From Candidatus Eiseniibacteriota bacterium (lineage in GTDB: Bacteria; ARS69): a stretch of DNA of 14,299 nt. How positions within the stretch are numbered: position 1 is the first letter of the stretch; each line of letters starts with the position of its first letter. Both the position numbers and the translations under genes were made by a program. Under the pieces are notes generated by a model. The model saw only the letters and a program-made list of their open reading frames with translations, ran no database searches and was not told the origin of the DNA. Shown here piece by piece: positions 293 through 14,299 of this stretch. The stretch covers positions 1 through 14,299 of the forward strand of contig JBQTGV010000177.1 in assembly GCA_052390515.1 (NCBI GenBank). Direction: 5' to 3'.

Positions 293-3200
293 ATGTCTAG
301 AAGCTCACTCGCCGCCGCCTGCGTCCTCGCTCTCATCCTGATCCTGATTCGCGCCGAAAGTACGCGCTCCAGCTACATGTGGGAGCCGGCTGTTCAGGTG
401 AGCAACACGCCGTATCGGTGTGTGCCGAACGTCGATCCATCGTGGAGCAAGACCGGCTCTCGCCGAATTCATCACGTGTTCAAGGAATGCGTGAACGCAG
501 CCGGCGACTGTGACGGCGACAGCGGCATGGGGTTGTACCTGGAAGTCGGGCCAGGGTTGGACGCCTCGGCTTGGAACTCGGCGTGGAGCGCCAGGGACAC
601 GCTGAACAGCAACGGCATGGGGGCGTCGGACTTCGACATGGTGGTGGACCGCAACGACGTGGTGCACGTGGTCCACGAGGTCTTCCATCACCCGGCCTAC
701 GGCGTGGGGCAGATCCCGGTCATCGCGTACAAGATGAAAGGTAGAAGGAGCTGGGATCCCGACACCGCCGTGGTGCTGGAGGACACGCTGACCGCCGGCA
801 CGATCGAGTGCACCCGCCGCGGCCACGGTCCCAAGCTCTTCCTGGAGCCGGGCGGAGACGAGGACACGATTCACGTGGCCATCCCTTACGACAACACGGA
901 CACGGTGAATTGCGCGCGGCCCACGCCGCCGATGCATCACGCCATGATCTACCTGAAGAAGGATGTGGCTCCCACTACTCCCGATACGGGAGGCGCGTGG
1001 CCGAACGAGACCTTCGCGACCCAGGAGTATGCGAAACATAACAAAGTGACCATCAATGGTGGAGGCGGGATCCAGATGCTGGGAGCGGGGATCTTCTCGC
1101 TGCTGCGCGATTCGACCGGGACCTTGCACATGTGGGGAATACAAAAGCTCGAGGCTACGACTGGGGCGGACACGCTTCTGTGGCGGCACTTTTGGGGCAC
1201 ACCGGGTGAGCCCGAGACGGCCTGGCAGGACACCACCAGCCGAGTGCTTCTGAAGGACGATCCACCGCTGGGCTTTGCCGAGTCCGGCGGCGAGCCGGCG
1301 CCTTTGAACAATGCGGTAGCGACGGACAGCTCGCTGTACTTCCTCTGGAAGCGGCGCCAGGGACCCGGGATCATTCATCGGGTGCCGGTCGGCGGGCCGT
1401 ATCCGGACACGACCGGCCTCAACTCATCCAACACTCGGCAACTCACCGCGTCCGGAGTGGCAGTGGAGCACTTGAAGCTGCGGCGGGCCGCGGATGGGGT
1501 CTGGCACCTCACCTGGCGAGCGAGACCTGACCCCAGCGCGGAGCCCCAGATCTGGCACAAGTACGTGACAACGGAAGAGGATCCCTTCGACGCCACGTCA
1601 GAAGTTCCGGACACGCCGGGCGGCTGGTCGACTCCGTCCATGGTGGCGGCCGACTTCGGAAGCGGGATCAGGGACGGCAAGCAAGCGTGGTACGTGGCCA
1701 ACGGCGACACGGTGTGGATCACGTTCGCGGCTGAGGCTGCGGGCGCGGACACGACGGACGAGGTGTGGTTCCGGAAGGGTTACCCGATCGGGTCGGACAG
1801 CGTGCTGGCGGGCAAGCAGGTCTGGGACGGCCTCGTCTCTCTGGACGCGGACTTCTACGTGGCTCCGAACTGCACGCTGGAGATCAAGCCCGGGACCATG
1901 GTGGTGGCGGCGGACAGCACCGACCGGCTCGCGGGTGGAGTGGACCCGAACTTGGTCGAACTGATCGTGCAAGGCACGCTGTTGGCCGACGGGACGGCGG
2001 CCGAGCCGATCGAGTTCCGCTCCGCGGATACGACGGCGACGAATGGCTGGTACGGAATCCGCCTGGACCTGATCGGCTCGACGTGGACCGGCTACGGCTA
2101 CATCGGCTCGGAGGAACCGCTGTCTTCGATCGCCCACGCCACGATCCGGGACGCGGCTAAGGGCATCTCCATCGAGAACCTGATCGCGCCGAACCTGGCG
2201 GACGTGCAGTTCACGAACATCGGGGGCAGTCCGGCCAAGCACATCTATCTCGACAGCACCGACGTGGTGCTGCCGTACGGGGTGTGGGACCGGACGGCCA
2301 ACCCCGACACGGTCAAGAGGGTGCCCGGCACCTGGGACCTTGCTCGGGTGAACGTCATCGCCGCCAACGCTGCGTCGCAGGATGCACCGTACGGAGCGGC
2401 GAGCCAGGTGGATTTGATCGTCCAGGGGAAGCTGTTCACCAGCGGCAGCTCCGCGAACGGTGACTCGACCTACTTCCGCCCGGAGAGCCCGACCAGCGCG
2501 GGGAACAACTGGGGCGGCCTGCTCCTGGATTTTGATGCCGCGGGGAGCGTGATCGAATATCTGGACATCGGCTACGCGGCCAATCCCGTGTTCCTCTTCT
2601 ATGCGGACTCGTCGACGGCGCTTCGCCACTGCCGGATCCACGACTTCGCGGACGTGGGCATCTGGGTGGACGAGGCGGTGGGTTTCGGGGGGATCATCGA
2701 GTCGAACACCGTCGAGCGTGGCACGAACGTTCTCCTGAGCCTTGGGCGAACGGGCATCTTGCTGGACGGCGCCGACCAGATGGTGGTGAAGGACAACAAG
2801 GTGGATCTGTCGGGGCTCGTGCTCACCGGAGGCACTTCCGCCGCCATCGACGTGATGTGGGGAAGCTCGTGGTGCAACGCGAATCCCCCGGGTGGTGAGC
2901 GGCTGGTTGTCCAGGGTAACTGGGTCGTGGGGCCAGGCACCGGGGCCCTCCTCGGGACGCACTCCGGCATCCGGTCCACGTGGATCTGTGCGCAGACCAA
3001 CCGCAGGGTCGACTACGTCCGGAACTACGTGGAGGACTTCAATCTGGCGGGGCTGGCGCTGACCCAGACCCAGCACATCCAGGCGGACAGCAACAACGTG
3101 GTGCAGAGCCTTCGAGCCGTGGACATCAGCCGGGACTCCAACGCGGCGCTGACCGGGCCCGTGGCAAACTGGAGGGCGAATTGGTTCGAGTACGACACGC

Positions 3201-3889
3201 GCGCCGCAATTGAGCTCATTCGCACGAACAACAAGCTTCGGACGAAGTTCGGTCCGAGTTCCACGCTACTCGGCGACAATGGGTTCCTCGTTGCCGACAG
3301 CATGGCTGTCTTTATGCGCGAGAACGACACGGCTGTGGACACTCTAAAGGCAGAGGAGAACTACTGGTATCTTGACGCGAACGGATCGGAGGTCTTCCTC
3401 AACACGCTGCAAGAGTGGTCATTCAAGATCCGACCTCGTCTAGACCCTGACTCGACCGAGTACGACGTCTGGCCGGTGAAGACGAGTGATTCGCCTGCCA
3501 CATACTTCCGGATGTCGAGCCCCCCATCCGTCGGTCGAGTGATGGCGAGTGCTTTAGGACTGTACAAGGAAGCCGGAGAACCTTCGGAAGCTGGGTCGGC
3601 GCCCCTGAGTACGTTCCTGAGTCCGCCGCTGGAGAATCCGATTCGGACAGCGACGGAAGTGGTGCTGGGAGTGGCGTCGGAGAACCAGGGCCTCTACAAG
3701 GTCGAGGTCTTCGACGTGGCGGGGCGGCGCGTCGCTACTCTGCTTCGAGAGACCCTTCATGCTGGAACGTACCGCATTCCCTGGAACGGAACGAACTCAT
3801 CTGGCGAACGAGTCACCGCAGGGACGTACTTCATGCGTGCGGAGGGTCCTGGATTCCTGAAGACACAAAAGGTTACGCTGGTGAGGTAA
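293..3889 (+). CDS. Large secreted/surface protein (1198 aa): signal peptide, beta-propeller-like N-terminal half, right-handed beta-helix region, C-terminal FlgD-Ig / T9SS type A-like sorting domain
   Basis: Hydrophobic N-terminus (LAAACVLALILILIRA). G-rich RBS 280-288. Blade-like motifs (DMVVDRNDVVHVVHE, DGVWHLTWR). Two LIVQG.L...G......F.......W.G modules that typically cap beta-helices. C-terminal NP...VEVFDVAGRRVATL...GTYRIPWNGTNSSGERVTAGTYFMR...TQKVTLVR. Confidence 0.85.
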   Translation: MSRSSLAAACVLALILILIRAESTRSSYMWEPAVQVSNTPYRCVPNVDPSWSKTGSRRIHHVFKECVNAAGDCDGDSGMGLYLEVGPGLDASAWNSAWSARDTLNSNGMGASDFDMVVDRNDVVHVVHEVFHHPAYGVGQIPVIAYKMKGRRSWDPDTAVVLEDTLTAGTIECTRRGHGPKLFLEPGGDEDTIHVAIPYDNTDTVNCARPTPPMHHAMIYLKKDVAPTTPDTGGAWPNETFATQEYAKHNKVTINGGGGIQMLGAGIFSLLRDSTGTLHMWGIQKLEATTGADTLLWRHFWGTPGEPETAWQDTTSRVLLKDDPPLGFAESGGEPAPLNNAVATDSSLYFLWKRRQGPGIIHRVPVGGPYPDTTGLNSSNTRQLTASGVAVEHLKLRRAADGVWHLTWRARPDPSAEPQIWHKYVTTEEDPFDATSEVPDTPGGWSTPSMVAADFGSGIRDGKQAWYVANGDTVWITFAAEAAGADTTDEVWFRKGYPIGSDSVLAGKQVWDGLVSLDADFYVAPNCTLEIKPGTMVVAADSTDRLAGGVDPNLVELIVQGTLLADGTAAEPIEFRSADTTATNGWYGIRLDLIGSTWTGYGYIGSEEPLSSIAHATIRDAAKGISIENLIAPNLADVQFTNIGGSPAKHIYLDSTDVVLPYGVWDRTANPDTVKRVPGTWDLARVNVIAANAASQDAPYGAASQVDLIVQGKLFTSGSSANGDSTYFRPESPTSAGNNWGGLLLDFDAAGSVIEYLDIGYAANPVFLFYADSSTALRHCRIHDFADVGIWVDEAVGFGGIIESNTVERGTNVLLSLGRTGILLDGADQMVVKDNKVDLSGLVLTGGTSAAIDVMWGSSWCNANPPGGERLVVQGNWVVGPGTGALLGTHSGIRSTWICAQTNRRVDYVRNYVEDFNLAGLALTQTQHIQADSNNVVQSLRAVDISRDSNAALTGPVANWRANWFEYDTRAAIELIRTNNKLRTKFGPSSTLLGDNGFLVADSMAVFMRENDTAVDTLKAEENYWYLDANGSEVFLNTLQEWSFKIRPRLDPDSTEYDVWPVKTSDSPATYFRMSSPPSVGRVMASALGLYKEAGEPSEAGSAPLSTFLSPPLENPIRTATEVVLGVASENQGLYKVEVFDVAGRRVATLLRETLHAGTYRIPWNGTNSSGERVTAGTYFMRAEGPGFLKTQKVTLVR
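1910..2119 (+). repeat. Direct repeat copy 1 (210 bp, codons 540-609 of the large gene); copy 2 at 5927-6136
   Basis: Manual ungapped alignment at offset 4017: 19 mismatches in 210 nt. Confidence 0.95.
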
Positions 3890-3904
3890 GGAGGTTGCAC
3901 AGCC

Positions 3905-5215
3905 ATGAAGAGGCATCGAGGACTCATGGTCACCGCAGGGTGCTGCTCCATCCTCACCCTCTCTCCAGGGTGGGCGGCCACCCAGAGGGTACCAACCGAG
4001 TATGCGACCATTCAGGCAGGCGTGGACGCTAGCGCACCTGGGGATACGGTGCTGGTCGCGCCCGGGACCTACGTCGATTGGGAGACGCGGGGCCTGCGGT
4101 CGGCTTGCGTCTTCTTGCGCGACGGTGTGGCCCTGCGGTCGGAGTCTGGACCGAGCGCGACAACGATCGACATGCAAGGTTCTGGTGTCGGCTCTGTCGA
4201 CGTGCTCTTTTCCGATCAGATCAGTTCGACTTCCACGCTGGTGGAAGGATTCACGATCACGGGGGTCCCCGTCGGCCGGTCAGGGGCGTTCGTGGTTGGA
4301 CCCGGGGTCATGACATTCCGCCATTGTGTGTTCCGGGACATGGACGGCGGCTCCTCGGGGTCCGCGGGGATCGTGTCCTGGTGCGACTTGGTCGTCAGCG
4401 GATGTGAGTTTCGGAATCTCCGTAGCACGTCCAATGGCGCCGGCATCTTCATGTCCAACGAGGCCGACCTATTCGTGGACGGCTGCCTGTTCACCAACTG
4501 CATGGAGCGCGCCATCGCCGCACTTGCCTTCGACAACCTGATCCACGAGCAGGCCGTGATCACCAACAGCTCGTTCATCGGGAACTCGGAGGCGAACTCG
4601 GGAGGCGGCGGGGCGATTGCGATCGGGGGCTATCAGGATGGTGTGACGATCACGGACTGCTACTTCGAGAACAACTCGGCGGCGTCGGGTGGGGGAGCGG
4701 TGGGAATCAACGCGGCTGTGACGGTTGCCTACTCAGTCCGGAACTGCGTCTTCTGGAACAACCGTACTTCGTTCGGGGGAGGAGGGGGCGGAGCGCTGGC
4801 GACGGGCGGGTCCGGGACCGTGATCGGCAACACCTTCCACGCCAACACGGCCTTCGGCGCCGGTCCGGCTGCGGCCTTCCAGGTGGGCTCCATCCAGTTC
4901 AAGAACAACGTCGTCTCCGGCTCGATCGGCGCTCCCGCGGTGTACGAGCTGAGCGGGGTGGTCAACTCGAGCTGCAACGTCTACTGGAACAATGCCGGCG
5001 GCGATGCCTTCGGCTTCAGCCTGTCGGCCACGGACCGGGTGGTCGATCCGCTCTACTGTGACCCCACGAACGGAGACTTCACGGTCCATGAGACATCGCC
5101 CTGCCTGCCGGCGAACTCGGCCGGCTGCGGGCAGATCGGAGCTCGAGCGCAAGGCTGCGGTTCGGTCGCAGTGGAGACCAGGTCCTGGGGTCGGATCAAG
5201 GAGGGTTACCGATGA
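3905..5215 (+). CDS. Secreted right-handed parallel beta-helix (pectin lyase-like) repeat protein (436 aa)
   Basis: RBS AGGAGG 3889-3894. Signal peptide. VPTEYATIQAGVDASAPGDTVLVAPGTY helix cap. Repeated F..N...GGA(I/V/L) motifs. DPLYCD...GDF....SPC...IGA closing motif. Terminal SWGRIKEGYR. Confidence 0.9.
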   Translation: MKRHRGLMVTAGCCSILTLSPGWAATQRVPTEYATIQAGVDASAPGDTVLVAPGTYVDWETRGLRSACVFLRDGVALRSESGPSATTIDMQGSGVGSVDVLFSDQISSTSTLVEGFTITGVPVGRSGAFVVGPGVMTFRHCVFRDMDGGSSGSAGIVSWCDLVVSGCEFRNLRSTSNGAGIFMSNEADLFVDGCLFTNCMERAIAALAFDNLIHEQAVITNSSFIGNSEANSGGGGAIAIGGYQDGVTITDCYFENNSAASGGGAVGINAAVTVAYSVRNCVFWNNRTSFGGGGGGALATGGSGTVIGNTFHANTAFGAGPAAAFQVGSIQFKNNVVSGSIGAPAVYELSGVVNSSCNVYWNNAGGDAFGFSLSATDRVVDPLYCDPTNGDFTVHETSPCLPANSAGCGQIGARAQGCGSVAVETRSWGRIKEGYR

Positions 5216-5760
5216 GAACCTTGCACGCATTCCCCGCGCTGGTCGCCGGCGCGGCGATGGTCGCCGCCGCGCCAGCCTTGGCCGAGACGCTCCGCTTGGC
5301 GGTGAAGGACATGACCACGGTTCAGGACGGCCTCGGCAATTCCCGGGTCTTCTTCCACCTGACGGACCCCGGAAGCCTGGGGGACGTGGCCGTGTCCAGT
5401 GCCAGCGTGCAGTTCGAACTCGCCGGGACGACGAGGGCGGGAAGCCTGGATCTCGCCGTGCATCCGGTGCAGACGGCGTGGAGTCCCGGTGCGGTTACTT
5501 GGTCCACGGCCTTCGACGAATCGGTGTACGGACGCACGGAGGTGGACCTGAACCGCGGCGGGACGGTGAGCTTGGATGTGACTCTCGTCGTGAAGGAGAT
5601 GCTGGAGGGCGGCGTCGCGACGAACGGCTTCGTGCTGACCGCGGCTGCGCCGGACGCGCTGGGCCTGCAGGCCGCAGATGTCTCGCGCTTCTCGAACCTC
5701 GCGTCTGGAGCCGTGGAGATCAACTACCGGACCACGCCGCCGAGGCCGCGGCCGAGGTAG
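5212..5760 (+). CDS. Secreted DNRLRE-like domain protein (182 aa)
   Basis: ATGA overlap with the upstream stop. RBS AAGGAGG 5198-5204. Signal peptide ending ALA-E. Pattern VSSASVQF...VHPVQTAWSPGAVTWST...LDVT.VVK.ML.G...NGFVL resembles DNRLRE/disaggregatase-related domains. The gene is solid; the domain name is less certain. Confidence 0.7.
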   Translation: MRTLHAFPALVAGAAMVAAAPALAETLRLAVKDMTTVQDGLGNSRVFFHLTDPGSLGDVAVSSASVQFELAGTTRAGSLDLAVHPVQTAWSPGAVTWSTAFDESVYGRTEVDLNRGGTVSLDVTLVVKEMLEGGVATNGFVLTAAAPDALGLQAADVSRFSNLASGAVEINYRTTPPRPRPR

Positions 5761-5926
5761 GCGGGCCGGCGGCCGGTGTGTGCCACGCCAGCCTCACCGC
5801 GCCGGCGCCCCGGCCCGATCCAGACCCGCCGGTAGGCGAGGCAGCACCCCGCGCGGTCATCTCCACGAACGCGGCGATGAACCCCCCGGGAATCGCGATG
5901 ATGTCCGGCACGACCCGCCACGCCGC

Positions 5927-6136
5927 GCGGACAGCACCGACCGGCTGGCCGGAGGGAAGGACCCGAACCTGATCGAGCTGATCGTGCAGGGCACGTTGCT
6001 TGCTGACGGCACGGCGACTGATCCGATCGAGTTCCGCTCCGCGGATACGACGGCGACGAACGGCTGGTACGGAATCCGCCTGGACCTGATCGGCTCGACG
6101 TGGACCGGCTACGGCTACATCGGCTCGGAGGAACCG
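5927..6136 (+). pseudogene. Orphan 70-codon fragment paralogous to codons 540-609 of the 293-3889 gene (direct repeat copy 2)
   Basis: Translates ADSTDRLAGGKDPNLIELIVQGTLLADGTATDPIEFRS...GSEEP, 66/70 aa identical to copy 1. It has no credible start or signal peptide, and similarity ends abruptly on both sides. Confidence 0.85.
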
Positions 6137-6159
6137 GCACTGGGTTCTCGCCGCGGGAA

Positions 6160-7227
6160 TCACAACCTGGTCGAGTCCGCCAGGACTGCGTCGCTCAGCC
6201 ACCGCGCGATGGCCCGCCCCGCGACGAGATTCCCGCGGACGGTGAAGTGCCCGTCCCGCGGGAGGTAGAGCCCGGCTGGCTGGCGCTCGGCCCGCAGCGG
6301 TCCGAGCAGGTCGAGGTGCGGGATCCCCGCCGCCGCCACCCGCGCGACGAGCTCGTCGTGCAGTTCCACCTGCGGCTCCCCCTGCGGCAGCACGTACACG
6401 TCGGCCGGAAAGAAGATCACGGCGAAACGCGCTCCCGCGGCCTTCGCCGCACGGTCCATGGCTATGATGTGCTCGGCGGCGCGCTCCATTCCCACTCGGA
6501 AGTCATCCTCCGAGAAGTTGCGCACCGGCCGGGCAGCCGGCATCGCCCCGAACCAGCGCACGGCCGCCGTCTCCCGAGCCACGGAGAGCAGCCGCCACAA
6601 GTGACTCGAGCGCTGCAGGAAGCTCTCCTGCCAGACGCGGTGAGTGTGCTCGTCGAAGAGGTGTCCGTCCCGGACGGTGTACAGGTTCGGCGCGCCGATG
6701 AACTCGTCCAGGAAGTCGTTGTCGAAGAACCCGAAGAGGATCACGTCGGGATCGAGCTGCGGTGCCAGCTCTTCCAGAAAGGCGAGCGCGTTCTCCGGGC
6801 CGTAGCCGAGCACGCCGCAGTTGATCGTCTCGACGGCGTCGCCCCCGGCCGCCCGATCCATTTCGCGCTCGACGACGCTGACCCACTCCTCGCCCTGTGG
6901 AACGCCCCATCCCCAGGTGAACGAATCCCCGAAGGCGAGCACGCGCGTCACGGTCTTCGCCCCGACCTCGTCGTCCCGCAGCCCGAGCGAGTTGCTCGTG
7001 AACTCGGTCTCGTGGCCGCTGATCTGCACCTTGCCGGTGAAGCTCGGCGCGGGCCGGTACGTGGGCCGCTCCGACGGCAGGAACATCCCCCGGCTCATGA
7101 ACTGCCGGACCTCGGCCTGGGAGGGGAGGGTCTGGGGCGCGGCCACGCGCACGATCAGCTCGGCGACCGGCACGAGGAGGAGCAGCGTGCCGAGGGTGAC
7201 GGCCGCGCCGGAGAGGAGGCGAACCAT
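6160..7227 (-). CDS. Membrane-anchored SGNH/GDSL-family protein, AlgX/AlgJ-like (about 355 aa)
   Basis: N-terminal TM segment (VTLGTLLLLVPVAELIVR), NSLGLRD, block I FGDSFTWG, block II INCGVLGYG, block III FFDND, and C-terminal DGHFT (D-x-H). Start placed at ATG 7227, just after the upstream stop at 7238; alternative ATG 7266. Confidence 0.88.
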   Translation of the reverse strand: MVRLLSGAAVTLGTLLLLVPVAELIVRVAAPQTLPSQAEVRQFMSRGMFLPSERPTYRPAPSFTGKVQISGHETEFTSNSLGLRDDEVGAKTVTRVLAFGDSFTWGWGVPQGEEWVSVVEREMDRAAGGDAVETINCGVLGYGPENALAFLEELAPQLDPDVILFGFFDNDFLDEFIGAPNLYTVRDGHLFDEHTHRVWQESFLQRSSHLWRLLSVARETAAVRWFGAMPAARPVRNFSEDDFRVGMERAAEHIIAMDRAAKAAGARFAVIFFPADVYVLPQGEPQVELHDELVARVAAAGIPHLDLLGPLRAERQPAGLYLPRDGHFTVRGNLVAGRAIARWLSDAVLADSTRL

Positions 7228-7237
7228 GCGGCAGAGT

Positions 7238-8956
7238 CTAACGGCTCCCGCCGCCACCGGCGACATCCCGCCGCGCCGCGTCGATCCAGCCCCGCACGCG
7301 CCGCTCCCGCGGCCACCAGCCCGGCTCGTCCAGCGCGGACAGGGCGGCGACGAGCTCGTCCGGCTCGCGGAAGGCGAGCTGCTCGATCGTGGTCACGCCG
7401 ACGGCCTCGAGCCGCCGGACGTTCGCCGGGCCGATCCCGTGCAGCAGCAGGAGCCGGCACTTCTCGCCGAGCGCGCCCATCAGGGCCTCGGTGCTGCCGC
7501 CCGGAACGTAGAGATCGCCGGCCTCGATGAGCCGCAGGACGCCCCAGGCGCTGTCCTTGTGCCGGTGCCGCGCGTACTCGGGGACACCGTCCGGGACGCC
7601 AGGAATGTCCCGTGCACGGGCGGCGAAGGAGTCCACGGTGAGCCAGTCCATGGCCTGCAGCACGCCGAGCGAGAGAATGGCGACGCCGATCTTCGCCCTG
7701 TTCCGCCAAGCCGGCGGCACGATCCCCTCCGCCTCGTGCGCATGCTCGGCACCGGGCCGCTCCCAGTCGGGCAGCAGCCCGAGGCGGACGAGGGCGCGGG
7801 CCATCGACCACAGGCACAGCGCGAACGGCGCGAAGCCGAGGAAGCCGAGCAGCGGCATCTCGAACGGCCGCAGTGCGGCGAAGCCCGGGACGGTGTAGAT
7901 CCAGCGGCCGCCGGAGACGGCGTTCGCCGCTTCCCACACGAGACCGCAGATCATCCCGGCTACGAGCAGCCGGAGAACGCGGCCAGGCCGGCCGTCGGCC
8001 AGATCCCGAGCCAGGGACGCGCCACCGCTCCGGCGCAGCCACGGCTCCAGAAAGAGCACCGGGATGGCCCAGACCAGCGGGAAGAAGAACGTCGGCAACG
8101 CGAGGACGAGCGCCGTGGCCACGCCGCCGGCGATCATGAGGTTGCGGTCCAGCGCCGCCGTCCATCGGATCCCCGGCATCCTCACGCTCTGGAACACGCG
8201 GCGCACGCGCAGGCACTCCTCCAGCAGCAGCACGCCGGGCAGCACGGTAGCGAAGGAGAGCGCCACCCCGATGCGCCGCAGGACGATGTTCGCCGGCACG
8301 CCGACGTAGTACCAGTTCTCGACCCGGAAGTTGATCGCCTCGAAGACGAGCCACATCGGCACGGACCACGCCATGAGGTGCATTACCGTGCGCCAGCGCC
8401 CGTAGAAGATCGAGTAGCCGAGCGTGCGCGACGACGTGACGAGATTGACGGCGAGCAGGAACGGGTACCATGCGAAGAGGTAGTACCAGGTGTGCACCGG
8501 CTCGACGTGCATCACCGAGAAGAACGTCGCCGCGGCCCACAGGGCGCCGGCGGAAATGGTGACGATGAGCGCCGCGAACGGCGGCTCGGGGGCCCGCGGC
8601 ATCGAAGCGGCTCGCGCACCCGACGGCGACCGCGGACCCTCGACGCGCGCCTCGAACCAGTTGGGCCGCTCGTCGACCTCGACCGCCGCCTCGCTCTCCG
8701 CGGGCGGCGTCTCGGGTGCTGGCTCCGGCTCCGGTTCCTCGAGGCTCACGGGCGGCGGCTTCGGCGGCTCGCGCTTCGGCTTCGGCGGAGCCTTCCGCTG
8801 CATCTCCTGCGCCATCAGGAGCTCGGAAGTCAGGTCGCGGAGGATGGGGAGGTCGTCGGAGTCCTCCTTCGACGACGCACGACCGCCGAGCTCCGAGGAG
8901 GAGTGCTCGAACGTCGAGAAATCGGGCTCGTCGCTTTCCCGCGGCGTCTCGGACAT
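7238..8956 (-). CDS. Polytopic membrane protein with C-terminal DUF4332-like helix-hairpin-helix domain (572 aa)
   Basis: Start MSETPRES (ATG 8956). Several TM helices with WLVFEAINFRVENWYY, GLVWEAAN...WIYTVP and FEMPLLGFLGF. C-terminal LHGIGPANVRRLEAVGVTTIEQLA...VRGWIDAAR. The ORF-track extension to 9475 overlaps the peptidase and is not credible. Confidence 0.8.
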   Translation of the reverse strand: MSETPRESDEPDFSTFEHSSSELGGRASSKEDSDDLPILRDLTSELLMAQEMQRKAPPKPKREPPKPPPVSLEEPEPEPAPETPPAESEAAVEVDERPNWFEARVEGPRSPSGARAASMPRAPEPPFAALIVTISAGALWAAATFFSVMHVEPVHTWYYLFAWYPFLLAVNLVTSSRTLGYSIFYGRWRTVMHLMAWSVPMWLVFEAINFRVENWYYVGVPANIVLRRIGVALSFATVLPGVLLLEECLRVRRVFQSVRMPGIRWTAALDRNLMIAGGVATALVLALPTFFFPLVWAIPVLFLEPWLRRSGGASLARDLADGRPGRVLRLLVAGMICGLVWEAANAVSGGRWIYTVPGFAALRPFEMPLLGFLGFAPFALCLWSMARALVRLGLLPDWERPGAEHAHEAEGIVPPAWRNRAKIGVAILSLGVLQAMDWLTVDSFAARARDIPGVPDGVPEYARHRHKDSAWGVLRLIEAGDLYVPGGSTEALMGALGEKCRLLLLHGIGPANVRRLEAVGVTTIEQLAFREPDELVAALSALDEPGWWPRERRVRGWIDAARRDVAGGGGSR

Positions 8957-8987
8957 GGGGTCCCCGGCGAGGCTCAGGATTGCCCTG

Positions 8988-9015
8988 GAATCGGCCGCCC
9001 AGCCTCCGCAGTTGA
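8988..9015 (-). promoter_or_regulatory. Possible sigma28/FliA-like promoter for the DUF4332-SGNH gene pair
   Basis: Minus strand reads TCAA-N16-GCCGATTC versus consensus TAAA-N15-GCCGATAA. It lies in the only sizeable gap of the minus-strand block, about 30 nt before ATG 8956. Confidence 0.3.
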
Positions 9016-9135
9016 ATCTGGGCCAGAGGGAGGCCAGGGTCCAGCCCGGGAAGCCCGCGCGGCCCGCCGGCGTGGTGCTGTCCAGCGGGTGGGGTTGGCG
9101 CCAGTAGCCGGCGTCGGTCCGTCCGTCCGCTCCCC

Positions 9136-10542
9136 TCAGTCCAGCCGGCCGGGCATGTCCGCCAGGACGTAGGCCATGACCGCCATCGCGGCGACGTTCC
9201 GCTGCAGGGCCTCGGGGTCGACCTTGTCGACGGTGTCGGCCTCGCTGTGGTGAATGTCCCAGTACGTCTCCATCGAGGTGCGTAGGGCGAGGCCCGGCAC
9301 GCGGCCCTTCATCAGCGGTGCGATGTCCGCACCGCCGCCTCCGATCTTCGCCGAGTCGGCCTGCACCGGACGCAGGAGCTGGCCGATCTCCTGCACCACG
9401 TCCAAGACGCGCTGCTGCCGTGCCTCGTCCACCGTATCGTCTTCGCCCTTCCAGACGCTCACGCCGAACCCCCAAGGCTCCTCGACGCCGAGGTCGGCCT
9501 CGATGGCGGCGTGATGGCGATGCAGGTCCCCGCGAACGGAGTCACGGTAGGCGTCCGCACCGCGCGTGCCGTTCTCCTCGTTGGTCCACAGCACGACGCG
9601 GATCGTGCGGCGGGGGCGAAGGCCCAGCTCGGAGATGAGACGCGCCGCCTCCATGGCCACGACGCATCCGCCGCCGTCGTCGTGCGCACCCTGCCCCACG
9701 TCCCAGGAGTCGAGGTGCCCACCGATCACGACCACTTCCTCGGGACTCACCGCGCCCGGCACCTCGGCGATCACGTTGAACGACTCGGCGTCGGGGAGCG
9801 TGCGCGCTCCCATCTCCAGCCGGATGCGTGCCTCTTCGCCCGCCTCCAGCATCCGCGCGACCATCGATGCGTCCTCGATGGACAGCGCCGCCCCCGGGAT
9901 CCGGCGAAGCTCCTTGCCGTACTCCTTCATGCTTCCGGTGTGCGGGTTGCGCAGCGAGCCACGCCCCACGGTGCGGACCAGGGACGCCACCGCCCCCTTC
10001 GCGGCGGCGCACTCGGCACCCTCGGAGCGGTACTTCACCGTCTCCGAGTACGTCGTGAAGGGCGCGTTCCAGAGCACGATGCGCCCGGCCACGGCCGAGT
10101 CCGGAAGTGCCTCGAACTCGGCGAAGCTGGAGACGGCGACGACGCGTGCTTCGATGCCGCCGGCGGGCGTGCCGATGCTGCGGCCGAGCCCGAGCATGGC
10201 GAGCTCCGCGTGTCGCGGCGCGACGAGCGTGGCTCGCTCTTCGCCGCGGACCCACACTGGAACCATCACGCGCTGGCGCCGCACGTTGGCGAGACCGTCC
10301 AGCTCCATCCGCTCGACCGCCCAGTCCACGGCGCGGGCGAGGGACGGCGAACCGGAGAGGCGGTGGCCGATGCCGTCACAGAGCTCGGTGAGCTTGCGCC
10401 AGCCCTCGTCGGAAGCCAGCGCCGCGGTGATGAGCCGCTCCGCGTCGCGGCGGTGGCGCTCGCTGACGGCGCTCTCGGCGAGCGGCACGCTCGGCAGCGC
10501 GAAGAGGAGCGCGGCGGCCGCCGCGAACCCGGAGCGGGTCCA
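9136..10542 (-). CDS. M28-family metallopeptidase, carboxypeptidase Q / PGCP-like, with PA domain (about 468 aa; start codon anomalous)
   Basis: GHRLSGS, GGHLDSWDVGQGAHDDGGG, NEENG, IEAD, HHSEADT. Signal-peptide-like TRSGFAAAAALLFALPSVPLA-ES follows the codon at 10542, which reads TGG as sequenced. The next in-frame GTG is at 10488. Confidence 0.88.
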   Translation of the reverse strand, partial: WTRSGFAAAAALLFALPSVPLAESAVSERHRRDAERLITAALASDEGWRKLTELCDGIGHRLSGSPSLARAVDWAVERMELDGLANVRRQRVMVPVWVRGEERATLVAPRHAELAMLGLGRSIGTPAGGIEARVVAVSSFAEFEALPDSAVAGRIVLWNAPFTTYSETVKYRSEGAECAAAKGAVASLVRTVGRGSLRNPHTGSMKEYGKELRRIPGAALSIEDASMVARMLEAGEEARIRLEMGARTLPDAESFNVIAEVPGAVSPEEVVVIGGHLDSWDVGQGAHDDGGGCVVAMEAARLISELGLRPRRTIRVVLWTNEENGTRGADAYRDSVRGDLHRHHAAIEADLGVEEPWGFGVSVWKGEDDTVDEARQQRVLDVVQEIGQLLRPVQADSAKIGGGGADIAPLMKGRVPGLALRTSMETYWDIHHSEADTVDKVDPEALQRNVAAMAVMAYVLADMPGRLD

Positions 10543-12830
10543 ACGCCCCCGGTCCGGGTGCTCGGACCGGCCTGCTCGAGGGACTCCAGCACGAGCTTCT
10601 TGTTGATGATCTCGGGCAGCACGATCACGTCCTCGGGACGCCCCGCAGGATACACGGCGTAGAACGGGACGCCGGCCCGGTCGTGGCGCCGCAGGACCTC
10701 GGAGATCTCCGGGTCCTGGCGGGTCCAGTCGCCCTTGAGCGCGAGGACGCCGTTCTCGTGGAACATGCGCTCCACCTCCGCGTCGGCGAGCACGGTGCGC
10801 TCGTTGACCTTGCAAGTCCAGCACCAGTCGGCGGTGAAGTCCAGGAAGACCGTGCGGCCTTCGCGGACCGAGGTGTCCAGGTACTCGGTCGAGAACGGCT
10901 CCCAGCGGACGCCGCCGCGGGTCACCTCGACGCGGGGGCCGAGCCGGGCGGTCTCCCCGCCTCCGGGAGGCGGCGCTGCGAAGAGCCGATTGTGCAGGAA
11001 CGCGCCGTAGCCCGCTCCGACGCCGGCCAGCGTCAGCGCCCAGATCAGCATCACCCGCCGCATCGACGAGGTGAGGTCCAGGAACGTGCCGTGCATCCAC
11101 GCGAAGAAGGCCAACACGAGCAGGAAGGCGAGCAGCCAGGCGGCGCCGTCCGCACCGGTCTGCGCGCCGAACACGGCCACGAGCCACACGAGCGTCGCCA
11201 GCAGCAGGAACCCCATGCCCTGCTTGAACCGCTCCATCCACAGCCCCGGCTTCGGCACGTAGCGCAGCCAGGCGGGATGCATGGAGAGCAGCACGTACGG
11301 GAACGCCAGCCCGAGCGACGTGGAGAGGAAGATGGCGATGATGACCGGCGCCGGCTGCGAGAACGCGAAGGCCACCGCGGCGCCGAGCATCGGGGCGGTG
11401 CAGGGAGTCGCCAGGATGGTGGTCAGCACGCCGTGGAAGAAGGCGTCGGCGTAGTCCTTGCGGTCCTTGGCGGCGAGCCCCAGCCCGACGATCGCGGTCA
11501 TGGCGCCGACCTCGAAGACGCCGAGGAGGCTCAGGGCGAAGACGAAGACGACGGACGCGAGCGCTGCCACGAACGCAGGGTTCTGGAACTGGAAGCCCCA
11601 GCCGATGTGCTCGCCCGCGGACTTGAGCGCGACGACGACGAGCGCGAGCGCCAGGAAGGAGACGACGACGCCGGCCCCGAACGTCCAGCCGAGCTTCGCG
11701 ATCTTGCCGGGATGCTCCTCGGCCTTGGAGACGAATCCGAGGATCTTCAGCGAGACGACCGGAAGGACGCACGGCATCACGTTGAGGATGATCCCGCCGA
11801 GGAACGCGAGGACCAGGAAGCGGAGGAGGTTCGCGCCGCGCGCAGTCGGCGCGGGCGCCGCCGCGACGGGATGCTCGGCGAGGAAGGGCCCCTTGCCGGA
11901 GAAGACGGCTGCACCGGTCGCGCGGGCGGTGTGTCCGGCCTCGGCCACGTTCACCGGCACCTCGAAGGAGAGGAGAAGGTCTTCGCCCCCGCGAGGAACG
12001 CGGATCACGCCGGCGAGCGTCGACACGGTTCCCGGCGCCACGGAGGTGTCCACTTCGACGGGAACGACCACGGCGAGGCTCGTGCCGTCGTCGCGGAAGG
12101 ATCCGTCACGAGTCCACAGTTCCGTGGACGGCCGCGGGAAGAACACGCACGCGGCGGGGTCGGCGCCGCCGAGGCCCCCGAATACGACCGCGATCTCCGC
12201 CTTCGCCCCGGGAGGGATGGCGTCGACGCTCTGGAACACCTGCACCGCGACGCCCGGGACGGCGGTCGCGGGCCGCGGCAGTTCCGCCTGCACGGCGGCG
12301 AAGTCGCGGACGACGGACTCGCCGGCGGGGACGGCCTCCGCGGCGACGTTCAACACGAGCGAGAGATCGGTGCCGCCGGGGATGCAGATGTCCTTGCACT
12401 GCAGCCAGTCGACCCGCGCCGCGAGCGTCACCGTCTCCGCGTCGAGCGGGGACGGCGGAGTGATCTCGGTGAGAAGCAGCACGCGGTCGGCGTAGCCGAA
12501 GGTGACGAGATCGCCCGCCTCTTCATACCGGTGGGGGACCGGCCACAGGATCGGTCCGGCCTCGAAGCCCTGGGGAAGGGTCCACTCGATCGTGGTGGGG
12601 AGGCCCGCGTCCCCGCCGTTCTCCCAGTACGTGTGCCAGCCTTCGGCCATGCGGATGTCCACGGCCACCTGGAAGGGGCGGCCGGCCGCGATCGTGCCGA
12701 CCTCGGCGACGAGGCGCGCGGTGACCGTCCCCTCGTGAGAGCCGGGGGACGACTCATCGGACCCGGCCGGGGGCAGCGCGAGCGCGCCCCCCGCCGCCCC
12801 GAGGATCAAGAGGGTATGGAGTCGAATCAT
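10266..12830 (-). CDS. dsbD: Thiol:disulfide interchange protein DsbD family (N-terminal Ig-like domain, TM domain, thioredoxin); expected true end near 10539
   Basis: GWHTYWENGGDAG and QCKDIC (N domain), LNVMPCVLPV and ATPCTAP (TM cysteines), DFTADWCWTCKVNE and GVPFY (thioredoxin). Start ATG 12830, alternative GTG 12872. As sequenced it has a 91-codon low-complexity tail overlapping the peptidase gene. Confidence 0.9.
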   Translation of the reverse strand: MIRLHTLLILGAAGGALALPPAGSDESSPGSHEGTVTARLVAEVGTIAAGRPFQVAVDIRMAEGWHTYWENGGDAGLPTTIEWTLPQGFEAGPILWPVPHRYEEAGDLVTFGYADRVLLLTEITPPSPLDAETVTLAARVDWLQCKDICIPGGTDLSLVLNVAAEAVPAGESVVRDFAAVQAELPRPATAVPGVAVQVFQSVDAIPPGAKAEIAVVFGGLGGADPAACVFFPRPSTELWTRDGSFRDDGTSLAVVVPVEVDTSVAPGTVSTLAGVIRVPRGGEDLLLSFEVPVNVAEAGHTARATGAAVFSGKGPFLAEHPVAAAPAPTARGANLLRFLVLAFLGGIILNVMPCVLPVVSLKILGFVSKAEEHPGKIAKLGWTFGAGVVVSFLALALVVVALKSAGEHIGWGFQFQNPAFVAALASVVFVFALSLLGVFEVGAMTAIVGLGLAAKDRKDYADAFFHGVLTTILATPCTAPMLGAAVAFAFSQPAPVIIAIFLSTSLGLAFPYVLLSMHPAWLRYVPKPGLWMERFKQGMGFLLLATLVWLVAVFGAQTGADGAAWLLAFLLVLAFFAWMHGTFLDLTSSMRRVMLIWALTLAGVGAGYGAFLHNRLFAAPPPGGGETARLGPRVEVTRGGVRWEPFSTEYLDTSVREGRTVFLDFTADWCWTCKVNERTVLADAEVERMFHENGVLALKGDWTRQDPEISEVLRRHDRAGVPFYAVYPAGRPEDVIVLPEIINKKLVLESLEQAGPSTRTGGVGPAPGSRRPPRSSSRCRACRSPRAPSASATAATRSGSSPRRWLPTRAGASSPSSVTASATASPVRRPSPAPWTGRSSGWSWTVSPTCGASA

Positions 12831-12877
12831 CGACCGGTTAGAGCGCCGGAGTCGACCGAGAGTTCCCTTCACGGGAC

Positions 12878-13036
12878 TCAGAAGAGCGTGTAGATGAACG
12901 GCGCGACGGACGTCGACGTGAACAGGATGAGCGCGCCGAGCACCACCAGGACGACCACGATCGGCGTCAGCCACAGCTTCTTGCGCACCTTCAGGAAGTC
13001 GAGGAACTCCTTGATGATCCCGATTCTGGACGTCAT
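12878..13036 (-). CDS. Small single-TM protein, DUF5989 / SxtK-like (52 aa)
   Basis: MTSRIGIIKEFLDFLKVRKKLWLTPIVVVLVVLGALILFTSTSVAPFIYTLF. RBS GAGAGG upstream of ATG 13036. The RKK.WL.P and APFIYTLF signatures and its position after carbamoyltransferase and SxtJ fit the family. The ORF track shows it only as the tail of a 234-aa ORF. Confidence 0.9.
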   Translation of the reverse strand: MTSRIGIIKEFLDFLKVRKKLWLTPIVVVLVVLGALILFTSTSVAPFIYTLF

Positions 13037-13047
13037 GGATTCGCCTC

Positions 13048-13449
13048 TCAGTATTGCTTGCGGAGGCGCTCGGGGTCGAACGGTCCATCCGAGCGCCGGA
13101 TCCAGTAGGAAGCCCTGCCCTTCTCGAAACCGCGGTCCAGCGGGTCCTTGCCCAGCATCCGGAGCACGATCCCGTACGGCGTGAACACGAGGTAGAACGC
13201 GAGGGTGAGCATGAGCCAGGTCAGCGCGCGCGCGATCCCCTTCGCGGCCGGCATCCACACGCGGTGGATGGGACCCAGCGCCGCCGGGACGGTGAGCGCC
13301 AGCAGGGCGAGGACCGGTGCGGCGCCGAGCAGCCAGGGAAGCGGTGCCTTGTGCCCGCGCCACCACAGGATGCCCGCCCAGAGGAGACAGACGACGCCGA
13401 GGGAGAGCCCGAAGGTCCTCAGCTCTTTCCGATCCGGCTTCGCGCTCAA
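13048..13449 (-). CDS. SxtJ-family membrane protein (133 aa)
   Basis: TTG start with RBS AGGAGG. ELRTFGL, W...A..I, FYLVFTPYG..LR.LGKDPL and SYWIRR...LRKQY signatures. Three hydrophobic segments. Confidence 0.88.
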   Translation of the reverse strand: MSAKPDRKELRTFGLSLGVVCLLWAGILWWRGHKAPLPWLLGAAPVLALLALTVPAALGPIHRVWMPAAKGIARALTWLMLTLAFYLVFTPYGIVLRMLGKDPLDRGFEKGRASYWIRRSDGPFDPERLRKQY

Positions 13450-13461
13450 GTCCGCCTCCTC

Positions 13462-14299
13462 TCAGTCCGCTTCGAACTTCCGGTCGGCGCGCACCCGTTC
13501 GATGAGCGCGGGATCCTGGTCCGACTTGCGGAGCAGGAAAGGGCCGGCCAGCAGAACGTCCATCTCCGTTCCCAGGAAACACTGGAAGGCGTGCTCCGGC
13601 GCACAGACGATCGGCTCGCCGCGCACGTTGAACGACGTGTTGATCACCAGCGGGCAGCCGGTCAGGTCCCGGAAGGCCGAGATCATGCGATGGTACGTCG
13701 GATTCGTCTCGGCGTGGACCGTCTGCACGCGGGCCGAGAAGTCCACGTGGGTGATCGCCGGAACGCGGCTTCGCCGCACCTTCAGCAGGTCGATCCCCGT
13801 CTTGCCCAGGTCGCCGTCGGTCACCGCGATGCGGTGCTCGTTGCGGACGTGGGTCACGAGCAGCATGTACGGGCTCTCGACGCCCTCCTCGAAGATCTCG
13901 CCGGCGTGCTTGGCCAGCACGCTCGGGGCGAACGGCCGGAACGACTCCCGGTACTTGATCTTCAAGTTCATGCGGCTCTGCATGTCGGGATCCCGTGGAT
14001 CCCCGATGATGGAGCGCGCTCCGAGTGCGCGCGGCCCGAACTCCATGCGGCCCTGGAACCAGCCGACCACGTGGCCCTCGGCGAGCAGCTGCGCCGCGGT
14101 CCGCGGGACGTCGTCCTCGACCAGCTCCTGGTACACGGCACCCGTCGTGTCCAGGAACGCCTTGATCTCGTCCCGCTCGAATGCCGGTCCGAGGTAGCTC
14201 CCGGACTGCGCGTCCTGCAGGCCGCGCTGGACCGGGCGTGGATGGCCGTGGAGACGGGGGGAGATGTGCAGCGCGACACCGAGCGCGCCGCCGGCGTCC
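13462..14299 (-). CDS. Carbamoyltransferase, NodU/CmcH/TobZ/SxtI family (C-terminal about 278 aa; 5' end outside window)
   Basis: Frame open to the window edge (DAGGALG...SYLGP). Motifs WFQGRMEFGPRALGARSI, KYRESFRPFAPS, PAITHVDFSARVQTV, INTSFNVRGEPIV. Confidence 0.95.
   Translation of the reverse strand, partial: DAGGALGVALHISPRLHGHPRPVQRGLQDAQSGSYLGPAFERDEIKAFLDTTGAVYQELVEDDVPRTAAQLLAEGHVVGWFQGRMEFGPRALGARSIIGDPRDPDMQSRMNLKIKYRESFRPFAPSVLAKHAGEIFEEGVESPYMLLVTHVRNEHRIAVTDGDLGKTGIDLLKVRRSRVPAITHVDFSARVQTVHAETNPTYHRMISAFRDLTGCPLVINTSFNVRGEPIVCAPEHAFQCFLGTEMDVLLAGPFLLRKSDQDPALIERVRADRKFEAD

Follow-up and report, generated by a model that had tools for sequence, protein, structure and literature searches.

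In the Dlt system, the tyrosine of the C-terminal FXYXXF motif of DltX acts as an 'acyl shuttle', which takes D-alanine from the membrane-bound O-acyltransferase (MBOAT) DltB and gives it to a serine of DltD, and other bacterial MBOATs bear the same hexapeptide at their own C-terminus (PMC12148441; for this and the other papers cited by PMC number, statements refer to extracts of the source). PatA acetylates this tyrosine, the tail of N. gonorrhoeae PatA being FIYANF, and PatB accepts the acetylated hexapeptide as donor (PMC12148441). In L. plantarum, DltX ends in NQAKFIYNEF, and the DltD ectodomain binds this peptide with a Kd of 2.4 µM; DltD itself is 425 amino acids (aa) long and has a single N-terminal membrane helix. 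The DltX tail is a ligand of the esterase DltE as well, and DltX is described there as a possible molecular connector (PMC13653941). Here we analyze a 52-aa membrane peptide of the DUF5989 (SxtK-like) family that ends in a hexapeptide of this kind and is encoded beside a carbamoyltransferase and an SxtJ-family protein in a Candidatus Eiseniibacteriota genome. The stretch in question, referred to as the window, is an entire contig of 14,299 bases (JBQTGV010000177.1; G+C content 68%) from an assembly of 4.27 Mb that is 95.14% complete. The three genes form a module conserved across many phyla, and we tentatively read the peptide as a possible tyrosine shuttle for carbamoyl groups.

The cyanobacterial gene clusters for saxitoxin (sxt) contain these families in identical order: sxtI, an O-carbamoyltransferase gene, is followed by sxtJ (405 nt), sxtK (165 nt) and sxtL (1281 nt), a GDSL lipase gene (PMC2679770). 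In the extracts, SxtI is assigned to carbamoylation, SxtJ and SxtK are of unknown function, SxtL is a GDSL lipase and proposed decarbamoylase, and L. wollei has a truncated sxtI and lacks sxtL (PMC2679770, PMC2684587, PMC3037375). SxtI, SxtJ and SxtK have been 'hypothesised to work in conjunction' (bioRxiv 10.64898/2026.06.11.731795). By its published GDSL-lipase annotation, SxtL may be akin to the SGNH proteins discussed below. A Dolichospermum DUF5989 protein (P0175) ends in FIYTIF. The window differs in that it is not a toxin cluster: it holds no other sxt gene, and the neighbors are a DsbD-like protein, an M28 peptidase and a membrane protein that we call X. A further relative in part is CgnD, an SGNH-fold enzyme that releases a C-terminal Ile-Tyr-Trp core from a 21-aa precursor and whose cluster encodes the carbamoyltransferase CgnI (PMC10070186). 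The likeness lies in an SGNH-fold enzyme acting on the Tyr-containing C-terminal end of a short peptide, with a carbamoyltransferase in the same cluster. In contrast, CgnD is soluble, it cleaves a peptide bond slowly and in a soluble 21-aa precursor, no SxtJ or DUF5989 protein is reported in the extracts, and its identity to the SGNH protein of the window is 15%. The four-gene order sxtI-J-K-L is thus already in print; in the literature searched we found no relay or carbamoyl-shuttle proposal, though the primary DltX study, known to us via citing papers, may survey other tail-bearing microproteins.

The peptide resembles DltX, as described in the extracts, in its length of ~50 aa, its single membrane helix and its F-I-Y-x-x-F at the extreme C-terminus, which is predicted to face outward. 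The SGNH candidates resemble DltD in that they combine an N-terminal membrane helix with an extracytoplasmic SGNH-type domain of ~350-450 aa. Unlike the Dlt system, the module has no MBOAT, either in the window's genome or in 80 of the 81 loci that we compared; the donor would be a soluble ATP-dependent carbamoyltransferase; the extra membrane protein is a three-helix SxtJ without an MBOAT-like histidine; and the group would be carbamoyl, not aminoacyl. The peptide also has a second conserved block on its N-terminal side, which may be a further difference. With PatA/PatB and with AlgI plus AlgJ/AlgX the module shares the tail motif (FIYANF in the PatA extract, FIYAQF in the single MBOAT of our loci), and its SGNH neighbors match the ALGX, AlgJ and PatB profiles. 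However, those systems use acetyl-CoA as donor and carry the motif on the MBOAT itself, whereas here the peptide is free-standing and no MBOAT was found in the genome. A preliminary description of the window, made from its sequence alone, had given the facts about DltX and MBOAT tails in agreement with PMC12148441 and PMC13653941, as far as the extracts go.

The DUF5989 peptide and its tail

The carbamoyltransferase, SxtJ and peptide genes fill the minus strand from 14298 to 12878 (Table 1), with gaps of 12 nt (carbamoyltransferase-SxtJ) and 11 nt (SxtJ-peptide). The peptide runs from ATG 13036 to the stop at 12880-12878 and consists of an amphipathic N-terminal helix, the basic patch K-V-R-K-K at residues 16-20, a single transmembrane helix (hydrophobic residues ~21-39) and an uncharged 13-residue tail, whose tyrosine is encoded by TAC at 12892-12890. 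It scores 78.2 bits against PF19451 (DUF5989), for which the cut-off is 27, and covers model positions 2-49 of 49. It is the only DUF5989 peptide in the window's genome. The tight packing, the peptide length, the KVRKK patch ahead of the helix and the exact F-I-Y-T-L-F-stop end had all been read correctly in the preliminary description.

The DUF5989 family is very large: a profile search of 1.84 billion cluster representatives returned 5,774 of them at E <= 0.001. Of 282 homologues found, the best 120 include 116 that end in FxYxxF and 110 that end in APFIYTLF; the four exceptions have Val for the first Phe, a terminal Tyr, a 14-aa extension and a truncation. We then collected 370 proteins, 361 of them full-length matches, both sets being the top-scoring matches. 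FxYxxF is present in 354 of the 361, Tyr at the fourth-last motif position in 357, and the motif ends the protein in 309; the other 52 come mostly from a search aimed at longer proteins. Conservation of the terminal Tyr and Phe had been named beforehand as a test of the shuttle idea, and both in this collection and in a search blind to the tail (see below) it was observed. Column conservation peaks in two blocks, F..KVRKKxWLxP (97-100%; R 98%, K 99%, K 97%, W 100%, L 97%, P 100%) and APFIYxxF (98-100%, with T at 84% and L at 82%), so that the tail is conserved more strongly than the membrane helix.

Our locus set comprises 80 loci from many phyla plus the window, 81 in total. The peptide ends in AP-F-[IV]-Y-x-x-F in all 80 genome-scan loci, a figure that is biased, APFIYTLF being one of the two scan patterns. 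We therefore devised a search that ignored the tail, in which an SxtJ profile was run on the 12 genomes of the window's GTDB phylum and a peptide profile lacking its last eight columns was applied beside each SxtJ. An adjacent peptide was found at 13 of the 15 SxtJ places (the window being one of the 15), and all 13 end in [FL]-I-Y-x-L-F: nine in APFIYTLF and four, which belong to a second, divergent triad, in SPLIYTLF or SPLIYRLF. The latter show that Leu can replace the first Phe, whereas Tyr and the final Phe are kept. The second triad (L097, L098, L099 and L101, in genomes G001, G006, G007 and G010) consists of a carbamoyltransferase with matches of ~1e-58 or weaker, an SxtJ and a peptide. 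The two genomes in which the main carbamoyltransferase-SxtJ pair has no peptide within ~7 kb (L102 on G006:C11 and L103 on G007:C1) are of one genus and both also carry the second triad with its own peptide.

Such an end is rare. Among 46,216 six-frame open reading frames (ORFs) of at least 40 aa in the window's genome, a single one, the peptide frame, ends in F-[ILVM]-Y-x-x-F, and only two end in the looser pattern aromatic/aliphatic-x-Y-x-x-aromatic. Across 7,911 ORFs of related loci, the loose pattern otherwise ends just one further loose match and an MBOAT (FIYAQF). The latter, from a Peribacteria locus (L050), served as a positive control for the tail search.

The orientation of the peptide can be deduced from charge and from natural fusions. 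In the collected family the mean net charge is +3.4 over the first 24 residues and -0.2 over the last 14. Several natural SxtJ-DUF5989 fusions (P0343, P0287, P0285, P0354) link the basic SxtJ C-terminus to the peptide N-terminus, which places both ends on one side of the membrane, the cytoplasmic one according to the positive-inside rule. P0343 represents 19 sequences and has relatives at 55-63% identity. A single fusion of another kind, P0221 (transmembrane helix, long domain, transmembrane helix, peptide), likewise places the tail outside. Taken together, charge and fusions indicate that the tail is most likely outside, as in DltX. Further SxtJ-DUF5989 fusions are P0297, P0315 and P0358; P0343 and P0287 have a single sense codon in place of the SxtJ stop, immediately ahead of the peptide Met. 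Other long forms were rejected as true fusions, as they mostly reflect N-terminal over-extension or read-through from a neighbor, and count as adjacency only. Among the single-member long forms are P0305 (peptide-carbamoyltransferase), P0364 (peptide-SGNH) and P0314 (carbamoyltransferase-SxtJ-peptide).

The three-gene module and its neighbors

In 68 of the 81 loci a carbamoyltransferase gene is found no more than 2.5 kb from the peptide, and 71 have SxtJ. Loci in which the peptide has neither partner nearby number ~7 to 10, some of them cut by contig ends. Carbamoyltransferase, SxtJ and peptide are a conserved three-gene module across many phyla; their order differs from locus to locus, which suggests that selection acts on the gene set rather than on any one operon layout.

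NodU/TobZ enzymes move carbamoyl onto hydroxyl groups. The carbamoyltransferase gene of the window is cut by the contig end, and its N-terminal half was found on another contig of the same assembly (C160), the first 125 bases of which overlap window positions 14175-14299 with 94% identity. This half matches PF02543 (Carbam_trans_N) at 2.3e-97 (L003 2-1111, minus strand). Both domains of the NodU/CmcH/TobZ type (PF02543 and PF16861) are therefore present, read from two overlapping contigs and not as one sequence. The contig split with a 94% overlap probably reflects strain variation in a metagenome-assembled genome. The genome holds two more carbamoyltransferase genes (C17:19928-21073 and C5:39906-40925; PF02543 9.7e-38 and 5.4e-29).

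SxtJ of the window has a TTG start at 13449, with GAGGAGG ahead of it, and its stop is at 13050-13048. Its PF19588 score is exactly at the cut-off. A profile built from 66 related loci scores it at 9e-47, although that profile was seeded by the window sequence and is not independent. In an AlphaFold2 model of the natural fusion P0343 (predicted local distance difference test, pLDDT, 84.9; predicted template modeling score 0.54), the SxtJ part has block-mean pLDDT values of 86-97 and is predicted to form helices at 3-28, 34-49 and 51-94. In the protein atlas, SxtJ matched hypothetical clusters only, with scores of 0.82 and below.

The preliminary description had called the system MBOAT-free, and this proved accurate for the genome: PF03062 (MBOAT) has no match in it, at 95.14% completeness. 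In the 81 loci an MBOAT occurs once (L050 17169-18653, plus strand, PF03062 3.5e-31), 8.6 kb from the triad. Clustering of neighboring ORFs yielded glycan-synthesis families (GT2, GT4, GT9, DegT, UDP-glucose dehydrogenase, Bac_transf, epimerase and B12-binding radical S-adenosylmethionine (SAM) proteins) and, apart from these, one small SGNH cluster only. Of 73 multi-helix ORFs found, 12 that were partial, overlapping or already known were omitted; among the 61 scanned, PMT_2 (11) and Wzy_C (6) were commonest, both outward-acting glycan enzymes.

An iterated profile started from the SGNH cluster detected 41 SGNH ORFs in 35 of the 81 loci. Twenty-nine of them, from 25 loci, are either inside the module or no more than 400 bp away, whereas uniform placement in the same loci predicts 3.2; none of 200,000 simulations reached 29, the maximum being 13. 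The adjacency is ~9 times the uniform expectation, and apart from its own members the module's commonest immediate neighbor is a membrane-anchored SGNH gene, in line with the association between triad and SGNH genes that had been proposed beforehand. In the 25 loci, 24 of 30 SGNH ORFs are on the peptide's strand. All four genes are neighbors in, for instance, L022, L033 and L058. A hydrophobic segment precedes block I in 38 of the 41; the SGNH ORFs of L040, L013, L080, L061, L060, L049, L037 and L062 have three N-terminal hydrophobic segments instead of one. Pfam searches with 31 of the ORFs gave GDSL_2 in 21, ALGX in seven and DltD in one, and in profile comparisons the SGNH neighbors match AlgJ (3.4e-13), AlgX (1.3e-08) and PatB (9.5e-05). 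The catalytic Ser and His are conserved in the set.

The window itself encodes a membrane-anchored SGNH protein of 355 aa if read from ATG 7227 and 368 aa from ATG 7266. In an alignment of 80 sequences its G113, S115, D184 and H340 are invariant, and N149, G151, N183 and D338 are conserved in at least 90%. The AlphaFold2 model (pLDDT 92.1) has 138 structural matches in PDB at E <= 0.001, those listed being SGNH/GDSL-type esterases and hydrolases. CgnD (8a2n_A) is the best of them, ahead of ordinary esterases (Foldseek E 5.2e-09, TM-scores 0.53/0.64), and is also the only near-full-length sequence match (1.1e-08, profile 80-376 against chain 33-343). Orthology of this protein to the module-adjacent SGNH proteins was considered and rejected: they do not cluster, in a poorly resolved tree with 29 of 56 inner branches open and with long branches. 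The genome has ~19 places with SGNH paralogues (e.g. C1:34921-36846, C182:7488-8888 and C70:16289-17986), and neither an MBOAT nor a second FxYxxF-ended ORF.

Shuttle, tether or precursor

We favor, tentatively and at somewhat less than an even chance, the reading that the 52-aa peptide shuttles carbamoyl groups on its tyrosine, in the manner of DltX. The peptide N-terminus and the basic SxtJ C-terminus would face the cytoplasm and dock the carbamoyltransferase, with the tail facing outward. Tyr49 would carry the carbamoyl group as an O-aryl carbamate and pass it on, either to an extracytoplasmic SGNH enzyme, at its serine, or to another enzyme facing outward; this enzyme would then carbamoylate a glycan of the envelope or, in the case of sxt clusters, a small molecule. 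Serine hydrolases are carbamoylated by aryl carbamates. As to the crossing, SxtJ might allow the tail to dip or flip across the bilayer; alternatively, it might pass a lipid-linked carbamoyl intermediate to the other side, by analogy with small flippases of undecaprenyl-phosphate-linked (Und-P) sugars. The carbamoylation of Tyr and the membrane crossing are the steps that we infer. In the window, the SGNH protein is a candidate acceptor enzyme with a weak link to the triad.

A predicted complex of this SGNH protein with the peptide offers weak support for the pairing. Its score was 0.46 (0.46, 0.48 and 0.46 in the individual runs) against 0.02 for the best of three controls, and likeness to known complexes may raise such a score. 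The inputs were our own alignments (80 rows for SGNH, 36 for the peptide), for which the benchmark counts hold only roughly. The mark for this score was reached by 58 of 80 solved complexes and by two of 110 mismatched pairs; scores past the mark and of 0.60 or less were obtained for seven of the 80 solved complexes and for both passing mismatches. The runs share at least 65% of contacts, the partner pLDDT is at least 71, and no interface was reported.

A number of results weigh against the shuttle. The score of 0.46 falls in a band that is more often wrong than right unless the pairing is likely beforehand, and generic helix packing could yield it, as the controls are not established as membrane helices. 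At E <= 0.01 the DltX Pfam profile PF12459 finds matches in the control genomes of B. subtilis and L. lactis but none in the window's genome; homology of the peptide to DltX was accordingly rejected, no PF12459 row appearing even at E <= 10. The SxtJ alignment has no invariant column, only a Trp and a Pro that are near-invariant, and shows no conserved polar or catalytic residue and no conserved His to replace the MBOAT histidine. Nor is SxtJ a recognizable fold, its best Foldseek match in PDB having an E-value of 4.3. With neither a catalytic residue nor a solved fold match, SxtJ is not recognizable as a catalyst or a pore, and the earlier proposal that it replaces the MBOAT found no support. 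There is also no evident route from a cytoplasmic ATP- and carbamoyl-phosphate-dependent enzyme to a Tyr across the membrane, and in two relatives the carbamoyltransferase-SxtJ pair has no peptide within ~7 kb.

The acceptor side raises difficulties of its own. No SGNH gene is adjacent in 56 of the 81 loci, and none lies within 10 kb in 46. The adjacent SGNH proteins are not one clade (17 tree changes against 19.6 with shuffled labels), and all four canonical hydrolase blocks are present, which means that these proteins could be plain esterases. The SGNH gene of the window, whose product the preliminary description had invoked, is on the triad's strand, yet it is 5.6 kb from the peptide rather than beside the triad, and it is not in the relatives' operon: in four relatives whose loci reach beyond X, no SGNH gene directly follows X. 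One relative has an SGNH gene 3.9 kb further past X, on the other strand. With ~19 paralogues in the genome, the chance of one falling within 6 kb is roughly 5% by our own estimate from the counts, and the nearest tree relative of the window's protein is another paralogue. Moreover, its closest solved relative, CgnD, is a slow peptide-cleaving hydrolase.

Many of these observations would suit a tether or connector without a covalent shuttle, the main rival reading, to which we attach a substantial, if clearly minority, likelihood, little below that of the shuttle. SxtJ and the peptide would anchor the carbamoyltransferase to the cytoplasmic face of the membrane, where a lipid-linked glycan or a membrane-proximal small molecule is carbamoylated directly, and the outward tail would be a docking ligand for a periplasmic enzyme, such as an SGNH esterase trimming carbamoyl or acyl groups, with Tyr serving binding and not chemistry. 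To our knowledge, all characterized relatives of the carbamoyltransferase act directly on hydroxyls in the cytoplasm. The two conserved cytoplasmic elements, F..KVRKKxWLxP of the peptide and SYW...Y..QF at the end of SxtJ, suit docking, as do an SxtJ without a catalytic residue, SGNH proteins with canonical hydrolase blocks, and the lack of an adjacent SGNH gene in most loci. In the literature, SxtI, SxtJ and SxtK are taken to cooperate on a soluble substrate (PMC2679770, in extract; bioRxiv 10.64898/2026.06.11.731795), and the DltX tail, which binds DltE, belongs to what its authors see as a possible connector (PMC13653941, in extract). What a tether leaves unexplained is the position-for-position match to the shuttle motif, with Tyr in 357 of 361 proteins and the tail at the very end in 309, and a tail more conserved than the membrane helix. 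A docking motif should also co-vary with SGNH partners as diverse and non-monophyletic as these, and the tail does not. We regard it as improbable that the tail is convergent without a shared mechanism, the aromatic-rich end merely seating the peptide at the membrane interface and the SGNH neighbors reflecting a general clustering of envelope genes. The failure of the DltX profile to detect the family and the abundance of SGNH genes in the window's genome fit that view, and a search of the peptide profile against all PDB chains, which hit only the NPxxY segment of a G-protein-coupled receptor, by chance, shows that such strings recur. Against it stand the single such end among the 46,216 genome ORFs, the 7,911 locus ORFs in which the other loose-pattern ends are a true MBOAT and one loose match only, and the ~9-fold SGNH adjacency; an interface anchor would, besides, accept Phe or Trp where Tyr is kept.

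The peptide might instead be a substrate, that is, a membrane-tethered precursor of a peptide-derived product or cofactor whose tail is modified by the carbamoyltransferase and cut off by a CgnD-like SGNH-fold hydrolase. This we consider very improbable. CgnD is the closest solved relative of the window's SGNH protein by fold and by near-full-length profile, it frees an Ile-Tyr-Trp core in a cluster with the carbamoyltransferase CgnI (PMC10070186, in extract), and B12-binding radical SAM genes are present in some loci. However, the peptide is a conserved protein that spans the membrane and bears another conserved block on the opposite side, and its family is huge, nearly invariant across phyla and located in glycan gene clusters. 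The SGNH gene is missing from most loci, and CgnD is soluble whereas the SGNH proteins here are membrane-anchored.

The relay proposed in the preliminary description is supported in part. Two tests named with it, on conservation of the tail and on the SGNH association, did not refute it, and no MBOAT was found in the genome; SxtJ as an MBOAT stand-in and a match to the DltX profile found no support, and the link of the window's own SGNH gene to the triad is weak. The full form of the relay would be a further class of trans-membrane group transfer, beside the MBOAT, AT3-type and lipid-carrier routes, in which the carbamoyltransferase loads the peptide Tyr, SxtJ and the peptide carry the group out, and SGNH enzymes put it on glycans; this complete scheme we consider rather unlikely. 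O-carbamoyl groups are found on surface glycans and natural products, yet their transfer is regarded as taking place in the cytoplasm only. SxtJ and SxtK have figured as proteins of unknown function ever since the sxt clusters were described. If the tail is a shuttle, tyrosine carriers, as shown for D-alanyl and acetyl groups, would also serve another chemistry with another donor enzyme and without an MBOAT, and a family of thousands of sequence clusters from many phyla would gain a testable function. If it is a connector only, it would still mark a conserved link from a cytoplasmic enzyme to periplasmic partners. Were a trans-membrane carbamoyl machine to exist, SxtL would be a terminal carbamoyl-handling enzyme rather than a simple decarbamoylase.

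Other genes of the window

Table 1. Features of the window (all on the minus strand) with their positions and supporting matches
Feature	Positions	Strand	Remarks
Carbamoyltransferase, C-terminal 278 aa	13462..14298	-	PF16861 Carbam_trans_C 1.4e-73; stop TGA 13464-13462
SxtJ-family small membrane protein, 133 aa	13048..13449	-	PF19588, 24.4 bits; TTG start
DUF5989/SxtK-like peptide, 52 aa	12878..13036	-	PF19451 4.7e-22
K16-V17-R18-K19-K20 codons, basic patch ahead of membrane helix	12977..12991	-	second conserved block
F47-I48-Y49-T50-L51-F52 codons	12881..12898	-	sequence; stop 12878-12880 directly after
DsbD-like protein	12830-10266	-	starts 47 nt after peptide
M28 peptidase	10266-9136	-	start overlaps DsbD stop by one base
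Gene X, 572-aa multi-helix membrane protein	8956-7238	-	weak DUF4332 match
Membrane-anchored SGNH/GDSL protein	7227/7266..6160	-	PF13472 3.1e-10, PF16822 ALGX 4.4e-06

Positions 12878-14299 are also open in one alternative frame of 473 aa, which is not a single gene; the three genes of the module lie inside it. Downstream of the triad, most of the row of DsbD-like, M28 and X genes is retained by relatives that represent several genera of the same family (L104, L105, L106, L107, L109 and L112); one locus gave no M28 match, and two show the row only in part. These three genes are thus companions conserved with the triad in the window's lineage. The SGNH gene starts 10 nt after gene X and is the final gene of the same-strand row. 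A promoter and terminator scan of 5600-14299 gave nothing above shuffles.

Gene X (P0437) has an acidic proline-rich N-terminus, ~8 hydrophobic helices and a C-terminus resembling DUF4332/helix-hairpin-helix (1.5e-05), and its atlas neighbors are hypothetical proteins from Gemmatimonadota and Thermodesulfobacteriota. It was considered as a hidden acyltransferase and rejected, the weak DUF4332 match and the hypothetical atlas clusters being all that was found. On the plus strand, positions 293-5760 hold three genes that converge on the SGNH gene and encode probable secreted glycan-active proteins: a 1,198-aa beta-helix protein with an FlgD_ig end, a 436-aa protein combining a beta-helix with DUF5123, and a 182-aa CBM96 protein.

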